In this document: piece after piece, positions 15,859 to 64,000 of the stretch
How the letters are laid out: every line of letters starts with the position of its first letter
Numbering within the stretch: the first letter of the stretch is position 1
DNA from: an uncultured archaeon
GTDB taxonomy: Archaea > Asgardarchaeota > Thorarchaeia > Thorarchaeales > Thorarchaeaceae
Assembly (NCBI GenBank): GCA_964458565.1
Contig: CAYWJO010000011.1
Location: forward strand, 16,318 to 80,317
Length of the DNA: 64,000 nucleotides
Direction: 5' to 3'
Position numbers and translations under genes: made by a program
The notes under the pieces: model-generated
What the model was told of the DNA's origin: nothing
Database searches by the model: none
The model's input: the letters and a program-made list of their open reading frames with translations, nothing else

Positions 15859-16322
15859 GACGGACTCCCTTCTAATATTGATATTCGCAATTGCTCCCAA
15901 GCTCTGAGGCGTGCCAGCATTACCTGGAAGATACACGGTGTTTAATTTCACCGTTGGTAACACTCAGGTATTACCTGGATGATATCCAGAATACCATCTG
16001 TGTTTTATTGAGCATCAACACTTGTCTACAAAAAGGTACCTCTATTGCCGTTTATTGTCATTTGAGCAAACTTGAGTATCAAGTTGTCCGCCCAGAAACG
16101 GCACTAGGCTCATGTTGTTGAACATCCATGAATTTTCTAGCTGCGTTGCCACTGAGCACCATCCGAAGTAGAGATTGGAAGTTGCCTACTATTGGAGATA
16201 CTCCGATGTATGATGACATTAGGGTCATCGTAAGGCATAGGAGTGATTGTATTGATGTTGCTCTCACACATATCCTCCATTTGCAGGGTTGGTCGAAGCG
16301 ATTTAAGAATCAATGGCGCGGA

Positions 16323-16541
16323 ATGGTTGTTCGTGATTATGATTTGGATGATGTGGTTCCTGATAAAACAACTAGGAACCAAATGAAACTGATTGCACTG
16401 ACGATACTTCCATGGCTAGCGAATATGTATGATGATGTCATTCTGTCTGAAGATACCAAGATCAATCTGAATGAAGGTATGAGAGAGGTGATGAAAGAAT
16501 TAACAGAGTATCCTGACTCTATTGAAGAGGATGATGTGTGA
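16323..16541 (+). CDS. Small acidic hypothetical protein
   Basis: 72-aa ORF from ATG 16323 with protein-like composition; no recognisable motif. Confidence 0.4.
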   Translation: MVVRDYDLDDVVPDKTTRNQMKLIALTILPWLANMYDDVILSEDTKINLNEGMREVMKELTEYPDSIEEDDV

Positions 16542-26347: not shown

Positions 26348-27391
26348 ATGAGAACCCCAGCATTGAGAATAATGACCTTTGATATTGATGAGGATGGTCC
26401 TCTAGTCATGCAGTCATCGATTGAGGAATTAGATAACTGGATATTGAAAGGATTCGGGATACGTACCCAGAACTTCGGACAAGACATCTTTTTCTATAGT
26501 CCTACATCCTATCCTCACAATATTGAAGATCATCGTATTTCCAATACAGATAATTTTGTATCCCTTAGTGTAACGGGTACCAGCTGTTCTCTTATGTGTA
26601 AACACTGTGAGGGACGCTTTCTGAAAGGAATGGAACCGACTATCACTCCTGAAGCGCTGTATGAAAGATGCGAAGAAGTATTTCAGAATGAAGGTGAAGG
26701 CGTACTAATCAGTGGTGGCTCTAATTCAAGAGGTCATGTTGTACTTGATAGATTTGTGGATACGATTTCCAAGGTCAAACGAAACTTGAATCTCAAAGTT
26801 GTTGTCCACACAGGTTTGGTTGATGAAGATACTGCTCAAAAACTTGGACAAGCAGGCATAGATGCGGCAATGCTTGATATAATTGGAGATGATGCAGTTT
26901 CAGAGGATGTCTATCGAATTCCAGATGGTCCAGAAAAGATGAACCGTTCAATGGCCTTATTATATGAGCAAGGCATTCCTTTAGTGCCTCATTTACTGGT
27001 TGGTCTAAACTATGGTCATCTGTCTGGAGAGCTAAAGGCTTTACAGATGATTTCCTCATTCAAACCTGAAGCTGTTGTGGTGATTGCGTTAAATCCGATA
27101 CGAAATACCGCAATGGAACATGCAACACCACCTTCCCCTGAGAATATCGGCCGAGTTCTTACCGTGGCGCGTCTTGGGATGCCTACAAGCCCACTTCTAC
27201 TCGGTTGTGCTCGTCCGTTAGGGAAACACAAAATTGACACCGATCTATATGCGGTAAGATGTGGAGTCAATGGAATTGCTTACGCAAGCCAAGATGGTGT
27301 TGATTTTGCTAAGTCAAAAGGTCTTAGTCCTATATTCAGAGATGTGTGTTGTAGTCTTGCATACCAGATGATTGGCTCAATCGGTTTCTGA
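26348..27391 (+). CDS. Radical SAM protein, biotin-synthase-related (LipS1-like)
   Basis: SVTGTSCSLMCKHC (CxxxCxxC), LISGG, LLGCARP and a C-terminal CCS. Confidence 0.75.
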   Translation: MRTPALRIMTFDIDEDGPLVMQSSIEELDNWILKGFGIRTQNFGQDIFFYSPTSYPHNIEDHRISNTDNFVSLSVTGTSCSLMCKHCEGRFLKGMEPTITPEALYERCEEVFQNEGEGVLISGGSNSRGHVVLDRFVDTISKVKRNLNLKVVVHTGLVDEDTAQKLGQAGIDAAMLDIIGDDAVSEDVYRIPDGPEKMNRSMALLYEQGIPLVPHLLVGLNYGHLSGELKALQMISSFKPEAVVVIALNPIRNTAMEHATPPSPENIGRVLTVARLGMPTSPLLLGCARPLGKHKIDTDLYAVRCGVNGIAYASQDGVDFAKSKGLSPIFRDVCCSLAYQMIGSIGF

Positions 27392-27923
27392 CTAACCATC
27401 CTACTAATTCATATCCCCCATCAAAAAACCAGAGTCCTACAGCTGCAAAGAGGAATGGAGGCCAGGGGATTGAAAGGAGTAAGACTGATAGTTTGAGAGT
27501 GAGCCTGTAAGCAAAGAAACGGCTTGCTCTAGGTGAAGCGGTTTCATCTGCCCAATCATTACCTCGTTCATCTAAGATTGCAGCAAGTAGCAAGCATACC
27601 AGCAAAGCGAGCCATCCAAACCAATCTGATATTGGTGGTACACCAAGAATTAACAAAATACCGAAGATAGCTGCGAATCCTCCTAGATATCCAACACTGT
27701 CTACTTTTCCAGAAAGAATCACACCAATAATGATTGCTGATAATAAAACCAGGTCCCATTCGGATACAGCCATGAGAATACCGAAGAACACGCCTGCTAA
27801 AGCTAATGGCGCTCCTGCTAAAGAGGGACGTTCCAGCTCATCAAGCAGATCATCACCCAGCTTGAGCGAAACTCCAGCAGAAAAATAAACACTGAGATAC
27901 AGGATAAACTCAAACTCGGTCAT
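27336..27923 (-). CDS. Multi-pass membrane protein
   Basis: About 6 hydrophobic helices; KLGDDLLDE motif. Confidence 0.75.
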   Translation of the reverse strand: MTEFEFILYLSVYFSAGVSLKLGDDLLDELERPSLAGAPLALAGVFFGILMAVSEWDLVLLSAIIIGVILSGKVDSVGYLGGFAAIFGILLILGVPPISDWFGWLALLVCLLLAAILDERGNDWADETASPRASRFFAYRLTLKLSVLLLSIPWPPFLFAAVGLWFFDGGYELVGWLVRNRLSQSSGMQDYNTHL

Positions 27924-27972
27924 CGTATTTACTCCGGAGTTAAAGGTGGCCCCTCAGCCTAGTAGTGCTGTC

Positions 27973-27991
27973 CCTCAGCCTAACTATGACA
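27973..27991 (+). repeat. 19-bp direct repeat, copy 1 (CCTCAGCCTAACTATGACA)
   Basis: Exact match to 28666-28684; a partial extra copy CCCTCAGCCTA lies at 27951-27961. Confidence 0.85.
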
Positions 27992-28247
27992 CTTCATCGC
28001 TCGTTTTGAGCATTAGTAGCCAATTGACATCATCAGGACAGCATTTTGAAATAGATTATTTCAGTCTTATAGTTTTGTAAAGAGAATCAAACCTTTTGGC
28101 TACTTTGAAACTCAATTTCATGAAATCCAATTATAAATAACTCATTGAACTACGAGAATATTTTTTATAAACCACCATAATCATATATTTATCAAAAGAT
28201 TCAATGATTCATTAACTAAATAAGTGAACTCCAACTATATACCTATT

Positions 28248-28478
28248 TTAACTGATATAAGAATCAGCACGCTTCTGAGCATCTTTCTCAGTACGACCAA
28301 GCTTGACTTGTTCTGCACTGATCTTTTCGTATCTCTCCTCAAACACATCATACGCTCGCTTGAGGAAGAGCATACCAAAGATGTATTCCTTGAACTCAGC
28401 AGCATCCATCTTTCCACGAAGGATATCAGCAGCTGCAAAGAGATGACGTTCTAGTTGTTGAAGGGTCAATCGTGCCAT
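28248..28478 (-). pseudogene. hsdM: Type I restriction-modification methyltransferase HsdM, N-terminal fragment
   Basis: [33 protein letters not shown] is the HsdM N-terminal signature. The frame stops after 76 aa and runs into AT-rich DNA. Confidence 0.85.
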
Positions 28479-28552
28479 TTGTTTAGCGCCCCATCTCAAA
28501 CATCCTGAATAGATTCGAAATGCCAACTGTTGTACAAAACTCTTTCCTAACC

Positions 28553-28649
28553 AATCTCATAATTGACTATACATCACCATAATCAAAGTGGTGACACTGG
28601 TAAGGGTAGGGTGGAACGCATGAGTTTCTTATTGTTGAGATTCACTCAC
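28553..28649 (+). ncRNA. Orphan copy of a putative TnpB omega-RNA / IS right-end element
   Basis: 28588-28649 matches the element downstream of the tnpB remnant (62555-62494, minus strand) at 46/62 nt without gaps; both end in ACTCAC. Confidence 0.55.
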
Positions 28650-28665
28650 TATAGAAATAGGTCAG

Positions 28666-28684
28666 CCTCAGCCTAACTATGACA
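28666..28684 (+). repeat. 19-bp direct repeat, copy 2
   Basis: Exact match to 27973-27991. Confidence 0.85.
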
Positions 28685-28712
28685 ATGATGTATCTTGCTA
28701 TAGAAATCGGTC

Positions 28713-28997
28713 CTATTCAAGAATTACAGGAGTCCCAATCGCTTGTCCAGGCAGGTTCGTCCGGAATTTTGCTCGGACAGCTCCACTATTACCATGAGGT
28801 CCAAGAATCTTTCCAAGAATCTCTTTTCCAGCCTCGGATGTCCATTTGACTTTCCTTCCAACAAGTGTAGATGCTTCAGCTTTTGTTTTTATCTCATCAA
28901 ATACTAAAAGGACCTGATTTGGATGCTGGAGATGTTTTCCTCTACGATAGCTTGTAACGACGCCTTCTAGGCCCTTTTTCAATTCACTCTTAGACAT
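28713..28997 (-). CDS. rpl35ae: 50S ribosomal protein L35Ae (eL33)
   Basis: GVVTSYRRG...HPNQVLL...GPHGNSGAVRAKFRTNLPGQAIG. Confidence 0.93.
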   Translation of the reverse strand: MSKSELKKGLEGVVTSYRRGKHLQHPNQVLLVFDEIKTKAEASTLVGRKVKWTSEAGKEILGKILGPHGNSGAVRAKFRTNLPGQAIGTPVILE

Positions 28998-29066
28998 CTG
29001 GTCTAACTCCTGTTGGCAATTCTCGTTCACGCCCTTCGAGATTCATATAAGACTTACTGAATGGAT

Positions 29067-29702
29067 TCATTCTAGGTCTAATCCATCAGTTTCAGAGGTA
29101 GGCATTCCTGCTTTTGCTATTCTTTTCTCTTCGGATTCTAGTATTACACTTTTCCCCTTCTCTAGTAGGACATCTCGAACCGAATAGCCCAATGGATCCT
29201 TGAGCTGTGCAATCCTGAAAAGTGCAAACCAAGTATGGCCATCACTATTCTCCTTTGCACTATAGAGATCATCGACAATCACTCGAGCCTTACTAATTAT
29301 ATCAACTGATGAACTGATTTCCATCACTAAATCTCGCTCTTTTTCATTTACCTGTTTGACTCTCCATACCATTTGTGCAGAACTTAATCCTGCTAATCCT
29401 AATACGAAAGCAACAATTACTACTGCATTCAAAAGCTCTGGTAAGAGGCTGGAATAGTACGCTAATACCAAGACGACAGAAACCAGCACAGAAAGAAAGA
29501 CAATTGCATCGAGGATTGCATTTCCTAATCTAGTCACTCGCCATTTGTAATATCTTGAGAGTGGATTTTTTGGAGTCCTGAAATGTGTGATATCCGTGAT
29601 ATATGCATCGCGCGCTCTTCTGTTTATCAAAATCATGAAAAATTGGATGACAAGTGCTGCAAGTATTGTCTGATAAATTGCTATTTCAACAGGAGTTTGC
29701 AT
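29067..29702 (-). CDS. Membrane protein of unknown function (3 TM helices)
   Basis: 211-aa ORF with three hydrophobic helices. Confidence 0.7.
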   Translation of the reverse strand: MQTPVEIAIYQTILAALVIQFFMILINRRARDAYITDITHFRTPKNPLSRYYKWRVTRLGNAILDAIVFLSVLVSVVLVLAYYSSLLPELLNAVVIVAFVLGLAGLSSAQMVWRVKQVNEKERDLVMEISSSVDIISKARVIVDDLYSAKENSDGHTWFALFRIAQLKDPLGYSVRDVLLEKGKSVILESEEKRIAKAGMPTSETDGLDLE

Positions 29703-33692: not shown

Positions 33693-33727
33693 GGAACGCA
33701 ATCATGTTGCTAGTACCACATGTGTAG
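33693..33727 (+). repeat. 35-bp imperfect direct repeat, copy 2
   Basis: GGAACGCAATCATGTTGCTAGTACCACATGTGTAG. Confidence 0.75.
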
Positions 33728-33864
33728 TTCACTCTCAAAATATCGTTCTGTCGAGAGTTTTATTCTCGTACAAAAATGGGTTGCTACTCCGCAATCCTTT
33801 TATTCATTCCAAAAGCGGTCACTCTGAACCGATTAGTGATGACTATAATTTACTCAGGTGATAC

Positions 33865-47772: not shown

Positions 47773-49056
47773 TCATGCATTCGAATCGATGATAGTCTTG
47801 GGTTGCTTAGCAATCACTAGTTTATGTGGTTGGATATCTCGGTCAACAATCACTCCCACTCCCGTCCTTGCTCCTTGATGTATGACGACACCTGTTGATA
47901 TCGAAGTCCCAATTCCTGTCTTCACATCATCACCAATAATTGTGCCAAGCTTTCTTCTTCCTGAGCTTATGCGTTTCCCTTTTACAGTCACATTCACTGC
48001 TCTGTTATCATGTCGCAGATTGGCGGTGATCGTTCCTGCGCCAAAATTCACTCTATGCCCGATAACAGAATCTCCAACATATGAGAGGTGGCCAATATTT
48101 GTCCCATCCATGATTATACTATTCTTTATCTCCACCGCATTTCCAATCTTTACCTTTCCACAAAGGGCGGTATGTGCTCGGATATAGCAGTTCGGTCCAA
48201 CAACTGAATTTTCACCTATATACACGGGTCCTTCGATGTACGCACCATTCTTGATTACCGCACCACTCTCAACAATGACCTCGCCTTTCAATGTGGCATT
48301 TTTCTCTACTTCCCCCTCAATTCTTCCTCTCATTTCACTCAGAACGTGTCTGTTAGCTTTGAGCATGTCCCATGGTTTTCCAATGTCGACCCACCATGAA
48401 CCTATTACATATGCTCCAACGTTATCGTTCTTCATGACCATCATGACAGAATCAGTAATCTCATACTCGTTTCTCTCTGATAGTTCAGTCTTCTCGATTG
48501 CATCCCATAGGTCCTTACTCACACCGTAGATACCCGCATTTGCTAGATTACTTGAACTCTGTTCCGGAGTTGGTTTTTCAATGAGACCAATAGCTCTCCC
48601 ATCATCAACGTCGAATATTCCATAAGCTGATGGGTTCTCAACTGGGAACGCAGACACTGTAAGATCATAGCCACCTTTTTCGTGATATTTGACAACATCT
48701 CCTATCACCTCTCTTCCAGCCATGACATCTCCATATAGTAGCAATATGGAATCATCACCTGCAAAATCCCTTGCATATCCTGCTGCATGAGCTGTCCCTT
48801 TTCTCTCGGTCTGAGTGATATATTCGATCTTCATGCTTCCCCAATCTTGAGAGTCTATTGCCTTCTTCAGTTCCTCCCCCTGATATCCGTATACAATCAG
48901 AGTCTCTTCTATTCCTGTTTTTCTCAGGGCATCTAACGTGTGAAAGATGAGAGGTTTCCCGCCAATCGGTAGCAGATGCTTTGGTACATTTGCTGATAGC
49001 GGAAGCATTCTAGTTGAGTCGCCCGCGGCGAGAACTGCAGCCTTCTTCATATTCAA
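47773..49056 (-). CDS. glmU: Archaeal bifunctional sugar-1-phosphate nucleotidyltransferase/acetyltransferase (GlmU-type)
   Basis: LAAGDSTRMLPL..PK, hexapeptide repeats, HLSYVGDS and NLRHD. Confidence 0.9.
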   Translation of the reverse strand: MNMKKAAVLAAGDSTRMLPLSANVPKHLLPIGGKPLIFHTLDALRKTGIEETLIVYGYQGEELKKAIDSQDWGSMKIEYITQTERKGTAHAAGYARDFAGDDSILLLYGDVMAGREVIGDVVKYHEKGGYDLTVSAFPVENPSAYGIFDVDDGRAIGLIEKPTPEQSSSNLANAGIYGVSKDLWDAIEKTELSERNEYEITDSVMMVMKNDNVGAYVIGSWWVDIGKPWDMLKANRHVLSEMRGRIEGEVEKNATLKGEVIVESGAVIKNGAYIEGPVYIGENSVVGPNCYIRAHTALCGKVKIGNAVEIKNSIIMDGTNIGHLSYVGDSVIGHRVNFGAGTITANLRHDNRAVNVTVKGKRISSGRRKLGTIIGDDVKTGIGTSISTGVVIHQGARTGVGVIVDRDIQPHKLVIAKQPKTIIDSNA

Positions 49057-49273
49057 TCAACATTGGTTCTGGTACTTCTTACTAATGAACCTGTCCAAGA
49101 GAAAACAGTTGGTCTATAGCCCAACATTGAAATATACAGCCGTGCTAGACTGCGTTACAATAATTTTTACGGCGATACATTAATATACTTCTTTGTAACC
49201 ATAATTAATTGTTGCGTTAAGTAAATCGTACTCGATGAGTACGGTAACAGCAGAGACAATGGTGATTTACAAA

Positions 49274-49519
49274 ATGATGACAGATGCAGAATTGCATGAG
49301 GAACTCAAGAACCTCAAACTCACTAAGAGTCAGAAAATAGTTCTTGACATCCTCCGAAAAGAAGGTAGAAAGGGCGTCACTCCAAAACAGCTCCTCGATA
49401 AGGTGTCTTTCGCACCACGAACTGTTAGATACGCTCTCAGAAAACTACTGAAGAAACAGTTGATTAAACGTGTTCCTTGCCTACAAGATATGAGGCAATT
49501 CATATACATGCCAGCATAA
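49274..49519 (+). CDS. Small basic winged-helix protein, paralog 1
   Basis: LTKSQK...PRTVRYALRKL...PCLQDMRQ. The start at 49274 is supported by a GGTGA RBS and by the paralog. Confidence 0.85.
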   Translation: MMTDAELHEELKNLKLTKSQKIVLDILRKEGRKGVTPKQLLDKVSFAPRTVRYALRKLLKKQLIKRVPCLQDMRQFIYMPA

Positions 49520-49536
49520 ATGAGAGCTGATGGATT

Positions 49537-49782
49537 ATGATGACAGATGCACAGTTGCACGAGGAACTCAAGAGCCTCAAACTCACTAAGAGTCAGAAGG
49601 TAGTTCTTACAATTCTACGAAAAGAAGGAAAAAATGGGATTACACCAAATATCCTACTAGATAGGGTGTCTTTCGCACCACGAACTGTTAGATACGCTCT
49701 CAGAAAATTATTGAAACTTAAGCTAGTCAAACGATTACCTTGCCTTGCGGACATGCGTCAACATATCTACCTTCCAGCTTAG
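49537..49782 (+). CDS. Small basic winged-helix protein, paralog 2
   Basis: Close tandem duplicate of 49274-49519. Confidence 0.85.
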   Translation: MMTDAQLHEELKSLKLTKSQKVVLTILRKEGKNGITPNILLDRVSFAPRTVRYALRKLLKLKLVKRLPCLADMRQHIYLPA

Positions 49783-62342: not shown

Positions 62343-62493
62343 TGTTTGGCCACAGCCTCCAATATGCAAGTCTGAATATTCAGAACGAGGACTGACATTC
62401 GCAGTAAGACAATGCCGTCATGCTTCCCGCTCATTTATCCGTTAATGAGTGTTTTCCTGCGGATATAGAATCTATTTTCTTACATCTTTTTTG

Positions 62494-62583
62494 GTGAGTA
62501 AACCCAAACTGCAAGAAACTTCTGTGTTCCGCCCCTCTCATGCCAGTGTCACCACCTCTCAGCACCCAGTGGATTCTGAGATT
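62494..62583 (-). ncRNA. Putative omega-RNA 3' scaffold / IS right end of the tnpB-like element
   Basis: Directly downstream of the tnpB-like stop, ends in TCAC, and is homologous to 28553-28649. Confidence 0.55.
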
Positions 62584-62603
62584 AGCACGAGCATTGTCTG
62601 TCA

Positions 62604-63146
62604 TCATCGAGATGGTATCCCTCCCACAGACCTGACTTCCTTCTCCTGTTGTTTATCTAGGTCATCACTCCCAGCGACAGCGAGGTCTACCACAGTTTTT
62701 ACCACGGTGGGATCTTTATCACCTTTCTTGACCTTATCGCTAAATTCAAGAAGACTCGCATGAGCATGGTGAACAGCCGCGGACTCTCCAGGACCTGATG
62801 CTGGTCCCTTTTCAGAGAGTAGGGACTTCTCTCCAGAAGGCGACTTCTTTTGAGCTTTCAGTCGTGAGCACTTCCCTGCTCGTTGAACAGCGTCAGCCCA
62901 CTTACCTAGTCCCCTCACTTCATGTAGTAATGGAGTGAGCGTAATGAGGCGTGCAGCAATGTTAATGGCTCCGTTCCTGTCAGTAAGAGAAAATCTCTGA
63001 GAGAAGACCCATCTGGGAATCCTCCTTGTACCATTGATGGCACATGGTCTTGAAACTCTCTTTCCTCTCTTTTTTCGAAGTTCGAGATAGCTCTCATAAA
63101 GAGCTACAGCAGTCTGTCTACATTCCTGTAATTCATTGCTGGAAAT
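62604..63146 (-). pseudogene. tnpB: Internally deleted TnpB-like nuclease (IS200/IS605/IS607-type) remnant
   Basis: A stop-to-stop frame joins an N-terminal-type helix (ELQECRQTAVALYESYLELRKKRGKRVSRP) to the RuvC-III motif DRNGAINIAAR (D at 62981) and a long tail. There is no start codon upstream of these motifs, and no RuvC-I/II or zinc finger. Confidence 0.65.
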
Positions 63147-64000
63147 TCAAGGAAATCTTAGTTCATCGGACCAGATTATTCGCTGTTACTACGGAGATAT
63201 GGGTGCTGATGCAGCTGATGATATGAGCGATGGTTATGCCACCTTTCCGTTGTTTGATGACTTCAGCGGAACCTCTCTTGATGAGGGAATCTGGATTACT
63301 GGCGTGAATGTCGCAGTGTGAATACTGCAGAGTTCTGGGTGGAAGTTCAAGATGACCTTGATACCTCACAGGACATATATGTCTACTATGGGTTTGATGG
63401 CGCAGTGAGTGTCAGTGATGGGGATGCCACCTTCATCTTCTTCGATGATTTTGAGGATCAGGGCTTCGAAGAGTGGGATACCAATGACGGAGAGAGTTGG
63501 GACATTGTTGATGATGTAGTCAAACAGGGCGATTATGCGGCATACTGTGCAGGGGGAGTTTCCAGCAGAACACTGGTGGCTGACCTTGATGACATCGCAC
63601 ATGGAATCATGCTTCATGCATGGACAAGAGCCGCATCTTCACTGGCATATGCAGGATGGCCAGGATGGGGTGCCGGAACCTCTGATGCAGGCCCCCTCAA
63701 GGGCTTTTACTCTCTCAGTCTGTACAGTAATTTCATCCGGTATTACCAGGGTTCGTATACTCCCTGGCCGCAGAACAGCCTGTACTCGGTGAATACATGG
63801 TACGAACTCGAGTTGGGAATGAATCCCAACACGGATAAACAACGAGCATGGAGGAATGGGGCCTACATGGGTGAGATCGCTCTGAAGGCCGCTGATGGGA
63901 CAAGCACGTTTGCAACGTTTCAGGAGTTGAGGTTGAGCTCTGGGTCTCATACTGGCAAGGACATATGGATTGACGACTACTATGTCAGAAAATATGTGGA
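63136..64000 (+). pseudogene. Fragments of a DUF2341-type repeat surface protein; runs off the window
   Basis: Fragment 1 (63136-63321): IRCYYG..ATFPLFDDF. Fragment 2 (63318-64000, different frame): AEFWVEV..IYVYYG..ATFIFFDDFE...IDDYYVRKY. Confidence 0.65.

Follow-up and report, generated by a model that had tools for sequence, protein, structure and literature searches.

The question raised by this locus is whether an omega-RNA-like element with no tnpB gene beside it is a working guide or debris of mobile DNA. An initial annotation had read positions 28553-28649 of the 64,000-nt stretch of Thorarchaeaceae DNA analysed here (the window; C11:16318-80317 of a 3.73-Mb genome in 93 contigs, which we searched in full) as an orphan, diverged copy of a TnpB-associated non-coding element, 34 kb from a second copy next to a tnpB remnant, and had proposed that it is a stand-alone, possibly trans-acting, guide cassette. 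We refer to the two as copy A and copy B. Our analysis places copy A within a family of TnpB right ends and indicates that it is probably a relic, that is, a dead-end piece left over from a TnpB insertion sequence's right end.

The alignment that first linked the two copies is reproduced exactly: 28588-28649(+) matches 62555-62494(-) without gaps at 46/62 positions, the blocks GTGGTGACACTGG, GGAAC, AGTTTCTT and ACTCAC are present in both, and the best rival 62-mer to 28588-28649 on either strand of the whole window stays below 34/62. In a whole-genome search with a covariance model (R1) trained on 28 other copies, with copy A left out, copy A scored 70.2 bits (E 1.4e-12). This model finds exactly seven element copies in the genome, and blastn and nhmmer on the assembly gave five strong and two weaker ones. 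Copy B and the coding remnant beside it, which is real, read as follows.

62462..62606 (-): copy B, scaffold portion under model R1 (128 bits), directly 3' of the tnpB remnant
62607..63164 (-): tnpB remnant, internally deleted, with residues ~92-158 joined to ~435-556 of a 556-aa relative (tblastn)

The tip of copy B is degenerate in the alignment. All six genomic copies other than copy A lie directly 3' of a tnpB gene or of a tnpB C-terminal remnant, starting within or just past its last codons, and among relatives the element sits at the 3' end of the TnpB C-terminal match in 28/28 distinct loci fetched. The C-terminal 124 residues of TnpB have matches in 21 of 41 related genomes, all 21 in the window's own family; of 25 same-family genomes, 21 have covariance-model hits, ~240 copies in total, and it is these 21 that encode the protein. 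A Cas12f1-like TNB domain (Pfam) is found in the ORF immediately 5' of copy C. Together with compensatory changes in the RNA and with the GTTCACTCA motif, which is known downstream of Asgard TnpB genes (Altae-Tran et al., 2023; PMC10691335), these positions bear out the assignment of copy A to a TnpB-associated non-coding family. Rfam holds no family that matches the element, and none matched anywhere in the window at gathering thresholds; ARAGORN called no tRNA in the whole window.

The description of copy A as diverged did not hold. Its 3' core is 56-86% identical to other copies, around a family mean of 68%, and its GNRA hairpin, 3' domain and tip are all canonical; as this lies within the normal family range, copy A is not specially diverged. 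Its top identity, 86%, is to a copy in another genus, and its closest scaffold relatives generally belong to other genera. Copies A and B differ no more than is usual within the TnpB right-end family.

Proteins of the family are represented in this genome by full-length or contig-cut tnpB homologues on C49, C68 and C79, by N-terminally cut homologues on C39 and C7, and by C-terminal remnants on C55, C11 (window 62607-62981), C32 and C52 (tblastn). At least one gene, that on C49, is full-length, and the C68 and C79 loci are cut by contig ends. The 559-aa C49 TnpB matches PDB structures of TnpB/Cas12f down to E 5e-11, and the scaffold that it carries is of a different type, much more divergent (64 bits) than the relatives of copy A. 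When this protein is aligned to a solved TnpB, the RuvC-II glutamate seemingly has no glutamate to pair with (residues ~330-345, L097; local sequence YVAIGKLTGIRD), and the nuclease may thus be inactive or rearranged. Divergent to the full-length tnpB on C79 runs an ORF of 1389 aa (L096:1626-5795 +) for which Pfam gives no significant match; homologues lie upstream of tnpB in G012 and G001 (L092, L093), and a 126-aa fragment of it is found in the window at 16137-16508(+). We found no Y1 TnpA in this genome. Its single Cas1 resembles an ordinary CRISPR adaptation gene beside two small ORFs, with no tnpB match on its contig and no GTTCACTCA motif nearby.

We derived the scaffold structure from an alignment of 29 copies, with pairing statistics computed on a 28-copy alignment. 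The 5' strands of helices P1-P3 lie within the last tnpB codons (GUCUGU/ACAGAC, GGGAU/AUCCC). The consensus further comprises P4, which is a long-range helix (GCCCUUGCU/GGCAnGGGA), a variable-sequence hairpin of 10-13 bp, a hairpin closed by a GNRA loop (GGUG-GUGA-CACY) and a conserved 3' domain that ends in GTTCACTCAC. Standard pairs occupy 88% of cells, versus 38-48% with slid partners, both-side changes occur in 17/32 pairs, and 0/500 shuffles reach the observed values. Most of the covariation falls in P4 and in the two hairpins, variable and GNRA; the 3' domain shows conservation in place of covariation. The family thus has a conserved RNA structure, from which the GNRA hairpin and the greater part of the 3' domain persist in copy A.

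Where the scaffold ends determines where a guide would begin. Similarity between copies A and B had been taken to stop after TCAC, with the guide directly behind it. However, in 29/29 aligned copies a linker of 3-14 nt and then a conserved tip, AGAAAYAGGTCA(K), follow, and flanks are unrelated only past the tip AGAAAYAGGTCAK; in copy A linker and tip continue to 28665, and the bases taken for guide are the conserved element tip. A covariance scan had been expected to find copies 3' of tnpB that end at TCAC: the copies do lie directly 3' of tnpB or its remnant, but their end is the tip. In the relative G012, at least six copies at different sites agree in the stretch before GTTCACTCA, in the linker and in the tip, and diverge immediately beyond it. 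The flank is therefore not the source of the linker or of the 12 nt before GTTCACTCA, and we infer that the guide starts after the tip in this TnpB family.

A second, smaller unit of the same kind is found at the other end of the element. Leaders of full-length copies hold GGAGTGAACTC, a small hairpin and the same tip (GAAACAGGTCAG), and in 14/20 full-length copies the 9-15 nt behind this leader tip exactly repeat a piece of the element's own promoter region. The promoter counterpart lies 93-97 nt upstream, and its sequence differs between copies. Examples are listed here.

L071:475-489 and 571-585; also C79, L085 and L079: leader mini units that copy the promoter/TATA region

Just before the promoter copy stands TTAAT (7), TTCAT (2) or a near variant, so that TTAAT/TTCAT account for 9/14, and from this we infer a target-adjacent motif TTMAT. 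The pairing of a leader tip with a copy of the promoter suggests RNA-guided self-repression. As a separate observation at the tip, GCCGGTTCRAAYCC, which by eye resembles a tRNA T-arm, stands right after it in the relatives' copies L067, L073, L013 and L016, and at a contig end in X5; complete tRNAs lie only 150-330 nt away, at 3/20 loci, and none was called at the tip by ARAGORN or Rfam.

Against this model, copy A can be delimited and dissected as follows, together with the gene fragment that it abuts.

28547..28665 (+): copy A, the 3' ~119 nt of a TnpB right end / omega-RNA scaffold (model R1, alignments, limit of the hsdM flank)
28550-28586 (+): degraded variable-hairpin region
28587-28598 (+): GNRA hairpin AGUG-GUGA-CACU
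28599-28606 (+): 3' strand of helix P4
28609-28649 (+): 3' domain ending in TTCACTCAC
28650-28665 (+): linker and conserved tip TATAGAAATAGGTCAG
28248..28546 (-): hsdM 5' fragment with native flank, fused head-on to copy A (Pfam HsdM_N, E 2.3e-16)

The 5' limit comes from the neighbour. Positions 28479-28546, including GGTACAAAACTCTTTC, are the native 5' flank of the hsdM fragment, held in common with the hsdM locus of the relative G056; as this flank reaches 28546, the element-derived part of copy A starts at ~28547. The start at 28553 in the initial annotation was thus about right, for a different reason. The hsdM-scaffold joint falls in a stretch where both parents are alike (ACAAA.C.C.T.C), a pattern that fits illegitimate joining at microhomology. 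By chance or microhomology, the hsdM flank also contributes 7/8 pairs of helix P4 in copy A. We had considered CTCTTTCC (28540-28547) as a retained P4 5' strand, and rejected it because the alignment with the G056 hsdM locus assigns it to the hsdM flank.

Upstream of the joint, about 90 nt of conserved 5' scaffold are missing: copy A has neither the 5' strand of P1 nor helices P2 and P3, which normally sit in the last tnpB codons. The variable hairpin is lost as well. Three modelled hairpin pairs are broken in the cmsearch alignment, and the region has a predicted folding energy of only -1.0 kcal/mol, where the family median is about -10 and 27/28 other aligned copies range from -5 to -18 kcal/mol. 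No tnpB coding similarity is found within 26500-29500 (best tblastn E 0.08), as the annotation had stated, which makes copy A a derivative of the family and not an intact member locus. A left-end profile that recovers each of this genome's three full-length copies (E 1e-20 to 1e-29) has no match in 27900-28700, and by eye we saw no TATA-like box on the + strand in the 150 nt upstream of copy A. A stretch at 28140-28240 that had looked like a leader by eye (ACTACGAG..., AGTGAACTC) was dropped when the profile gave no match there. Elsewhere in the window, 33725-33796(-) has a marginal match to the left-end/leader profile (E 0.1; GTACGAG...AAAAC...GAGTGAACT) and may be a left-end relic.

Relatives hold many 5'-truncated copies, cut at various points, so that fragments comparable to copy A are a common fate in this family. 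A related pattern is seen in the coding remnants, which are overwhelmingly cut at the 5' side with the right end kept, both in this genome (C39, C7, C55, C11, C32, C52) and in relatives, many of which have C-terminal ORFs of ~100-150 codons plus scaffold. Searches of the genome and of the relatives yielded no 3'-cut remnant.

If copy A were instead a working stand-alone omega-RNA, transcribed independently or by read-through, it would be loaded in trans by a full-length TnpB elsewhere in the genome. Such a TnpB is present, trans-acting stand-alone omega-RNAs are described in the literature (as stated in PMC10691335), and copy A conserves the 3' core, GNRA hairpin, 3' domain and tip, with a canonical junction between tip and flank. 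Nevertheless, we consider this unlikely. Three conserved helices have been lost along with the 5' third of the scaffold, and a near-universal hairpin is gone as well, no left end or upstream TATA-like box was detected as described above, and what is left is fused to a gene fragment inside a patchwork insertion. Moreover, the closest scaffolds to that of copy A belong to other genera, and the complete TnpB available, that of C49, carries the divergent one. These features speak against the stand-alone, trans-acting cassette of the initial annotation.

The sequence in the guide position also bears on this choice. It is drawn from a small-RNA gene close by.

28666..28684 (+): guide position of copy A, CCTCAGCCTAACTATGACA, 19/19 identical to 27973-27991 (direct-repeat family D2)
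27966..28037 (-): complete C/D-box sRNA-like gene with terminal stem GCUGUCC/GGACAGC, C box UGAUGA and D box CUGA
27945..27961 (-): 17-nt leftover of an older sRNA 3' end, GGTGGCC CCTCAGCCTA (direct-repeat family D1)

Both guide stretches of the sRNA gene are conserved, and syntenic homologues are found in 14 same-family genomes (L035-L049). Across the window and these 14 homologues, the gene has the archaeal C/D-box hallmarks of a C box RUGAUGA, a D box CUGA, a terminal stem and guide stretches; Rfam C/D snoRNA families match it over its full length at sub-threshold scores (15-18 bits, E 0.7-3). The terminal stem of the window copy differs from that of the homologues. The leftover at 27945-27961 carries the native flank, where relatives read ...CUGAGGAGCCACC in the alignment.

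The 19 nt after the tip of copy A are the antisense of the D box and the D-guide end of this gene. A guide position antisense to the sRNA 3' end implies that an element of the family once sat with its right end against a copy of the sRNA gene, and that former placement would account for sRNA sequence filling the position. For a stand-alone omega-RNA, the same 19 nt would make the sRNA sequence, or incoming DNA that carries it, the target, and the perfect 19-nt match in the genome favors that idea. Yet the only other genomic match, 27973-27991, is preceded by GCTGTC and not by the inferred TTMAT, and the 19-mer had just one match in metagenomes, in unrelated coding sequence. Copy A lacks three features looked for in a functional stand-alone omega-RNA: a complete scaffold, mobilisation as a unit and a target with the inferred adjacent motif. 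A relic of a TnpB right end remains the preferred reading.

The surroundings of copy A are themselves a composite. In 14 same-family genomes with spanning loci, the genes radical-SAM(+), orf195(-), L35Ae(-) and orf211(-) stand in the same order as here, and in most of these deoxyhypusine synthase(+) comes next. The orf195-L35Ae spacer measures 150-230 nt in relatives, the ~70-nt sRNA gene included, and ~790 nt in the window; by this synteny, the insertion in the spacer is lineage-specific. In addition to copy A and the sRNA sequences, it contains the following.

Between the sRNA copy and the hsdM fragment: ~210 nt of AT-rich DNA
28698..28712 (+): the tip once more, on its own, as CTATAGAAATCGGTC (14/15 identical), directly adjacent to the L35Ae stop codon (direct-repeat family D4)

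The hsdM fragment consists of 76 codons from an ATG at 28478, then a stop, plus 68 nt of native upstream flank. It has nucleotide matches to hsdM loci of relatives, none of which holds a copy of the element, and there is no second hsdM copy in the genome. The second tip follows the 19-nt sRNA copy, which ends at 28684, after 13 nt. A doubled tip resembling this one occurs downstream of a full-length tnpB in the relative G008, where the tip plus the ~13 nt that follow (AGGTCGT TCRAGACTGTCA) stand twice, 53 nt apart, on the minus strand (L069:145-224). Contigs from four other salt-marsh metagenomes that cover parts of 27500-29200 are arranged as in the window; their long pieces show no differences, and none has a joint that skips the insertion. 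A short element fragment set in a patchwork of gene fragments beside an sRNA gene looks like debris of mobile DNA and not like a working guide.

Around copy A, 750 bp contain four direct-repeat families with units of 11-19 nt. Two families of 15-mers per 850 nt, as found here, are equalled or exceeded in 2/149 tiles of the window. The densest repeat cluster of the window is elsewhere, at ~48876-49726, with four families of 15-nt near-exact direct repeats. Around copy A, a 19-bp exact direct repeat brackets 674 bp that contain it, and among the seven genomic copies only copy A has such a flank duplication. These repeats could be taken as a target duplication, with copy A as the right end of a mobilisable MITE/PATE-like element that has both ends. 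A full-length element in G020 does lie between copies of a 22-bp repeat, and G012 has a derivative with an internal deletion in which N-terminal codons are retained. We find this reading extremely improbable, however. The 674-bp unit is unique in the genome, the left-end profile finds nothing between 27900 and 28700, and on its left side the bracketed DNA consists of the 5' two-thirds of the sRNA gene, whose terminal stem pairs outside the bracket, which is unexpected for an insert. Furthermore, only 1/8 full-length elements tested in relatives has a flanking repeat, and with 7/8 lacking it, the repeat is not a regular product of transposition. As to the G020 repeat itself (L071:208-229 and 2351-2372, 21/22 identical), its right copy comes directly after the tip and its left copy 240 nt before the conserved leader.

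The same repeats can be read as a scar of repair. A TnpB armed with the element's RNA would have cut its target in the sRNA gene, and template-switching repair would have mended the break by copying pieces of the element end, the hsdM locus and the sRNA gene, leaving copy A and the short repeats. The density of repeat families, a hsdM-scaffold joint placed where the parents are alike, and a break point that coincides with the guide-matching sequence are all in keeping with such an event. Still, it strikes us as very unlikely: no observation points to cleavage directly, the inferred TAM is missing at the target, the seeming absence of a glutamate at the RuvC-II position makes the nuclease activity uncertain, and ordinary illegitimate recombination accounts for the same features. 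Candidates for the event or events behind the patchwork are composite integration of foreign DNA, stepwise insertion and deletion, and template-switching repair of a break.

Collectively, our data are consistent with the following history, in which copy A would be a relic of a TnpB right end. In intact members, the RNA would start inside the last ~25 tnpB codons, fold into several helices and end in GTTCACTCAC, a short linker and the tip AGAAAYAGGTCAK, with the bases after the tip serving as guide. One element of the family would once have lain with its right end against the 3' end of the C/D-box sRNA gene. Later rearrangements would have taken out tnpB together with the left end and the first third of the scaffold, fused the remaining 3' two-thirds to the hsdM fragment at a short stretch of similarity, and left short direct repeats and a complete sRNA copy 693 bp away. 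This order of events is a proposal, and copy A would probably no longer be in use. Characterised TnpB omega-RNAs tolerate 5' trimming, and since the 3' core of copy A is well kept, it may have residual function.

A bolder version of this history is that TnpB elements of the family repeatedly land on small structural-RNA genes, and that the wreck at copy A is the outcome of an RNA-guided break and of template-switch repair that rebuilt a working sRNA. We regard this as distinctly unlikely. If it were true, the retained scaffold plus guide might even now bring TnpB to those alleles in the population that had not been repaired.

As an element, the orphan is unremarkable; the by-products of its analysis are more useful. 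These are a tested structural model of the scaffold for a poorly studied archaeal family of ~560-aa TnpB proteins, a true 3' end and guide position that differ from the published suggestion for GTTCACTCA loci, and the inferred target-adjacent motif TTMAT; all three should help in reconstituting the TnpB system. The locus also presents a TnpB element that came to lie against a conserved sRNA gene and then underwent a messy rearrangement. Should this recur at small-RNA genes, it would be informative on the target choice of such elements and on their cost.

How does this family compare with known systems? As in the TnpB omega-RNAs of IS200/IS605- and IS607-type elements such as ISDra2, a structured RNA lies at the 3' end of tnpB, overlapping its last codons, and, behind a conserved scaffold, the guide position is occupied by unrelated flank. 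The protein likewise has RuvC-I GIDLG, a zinc ribbon and RuvC-III NADxNGAxNI. Unlike in those systems, TnpB here has ~560 aa with a ~120-aa tail, the genome has no Y1 TnpA, and the leader holds a second, mini unit of tip plus guide that copies its own promoter. Copy A departs from intact omega-RNA loci of any of these types in having no tnpB and only part of the scaffold.

The nearest published relatives are the Asgard TnpB groups with a downstream GTTCACTCA, which were linked to Asgard Cas1 and for which the variable stretch before GTTCACTCA was suggested as a possible guide (PMC10691335). The family described here, with the same motif downstream of tnpB, probably corresponds to these groups or is close to them. 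It differs in that the only Cas1 looks like an ordinary CRISPR adaptation gene, and in that the stretch before GTTCACTCA is conserved across the G012 sites and variable flank starts after the tip. Stand-alone omega-RNAs that are evidently mobilised and act in trans with compatible effectors have been reported (Altae-Tran et al., 2021, as cited in a passage of PMC10691335), so that even the most optimistic reading in the initial annotation would have introduced no new kind of element. Like the stand-alone omega-RNAs of that passage, copy A has no adjacent effector gene and effector loci elsewhere in the genome; unlike them, it is single, truncated at the 5' side and fused to a gene fragment, and its left end went undetected.

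Finally, copy A resembles the gene-less derivatives of IS200/IS605 elements (PATE/MITE-like) in being protein-less while retaining the guide-RNA region. Such gene-less elements typically keep both ends and occur in several copies, whereas copy A is unique and has no more than a portion of the right end. Relics of TnpB elements, truncated or gene-less, have been described before, and copy A is best filed among them, as a truncated derivative of a TnpB right end.
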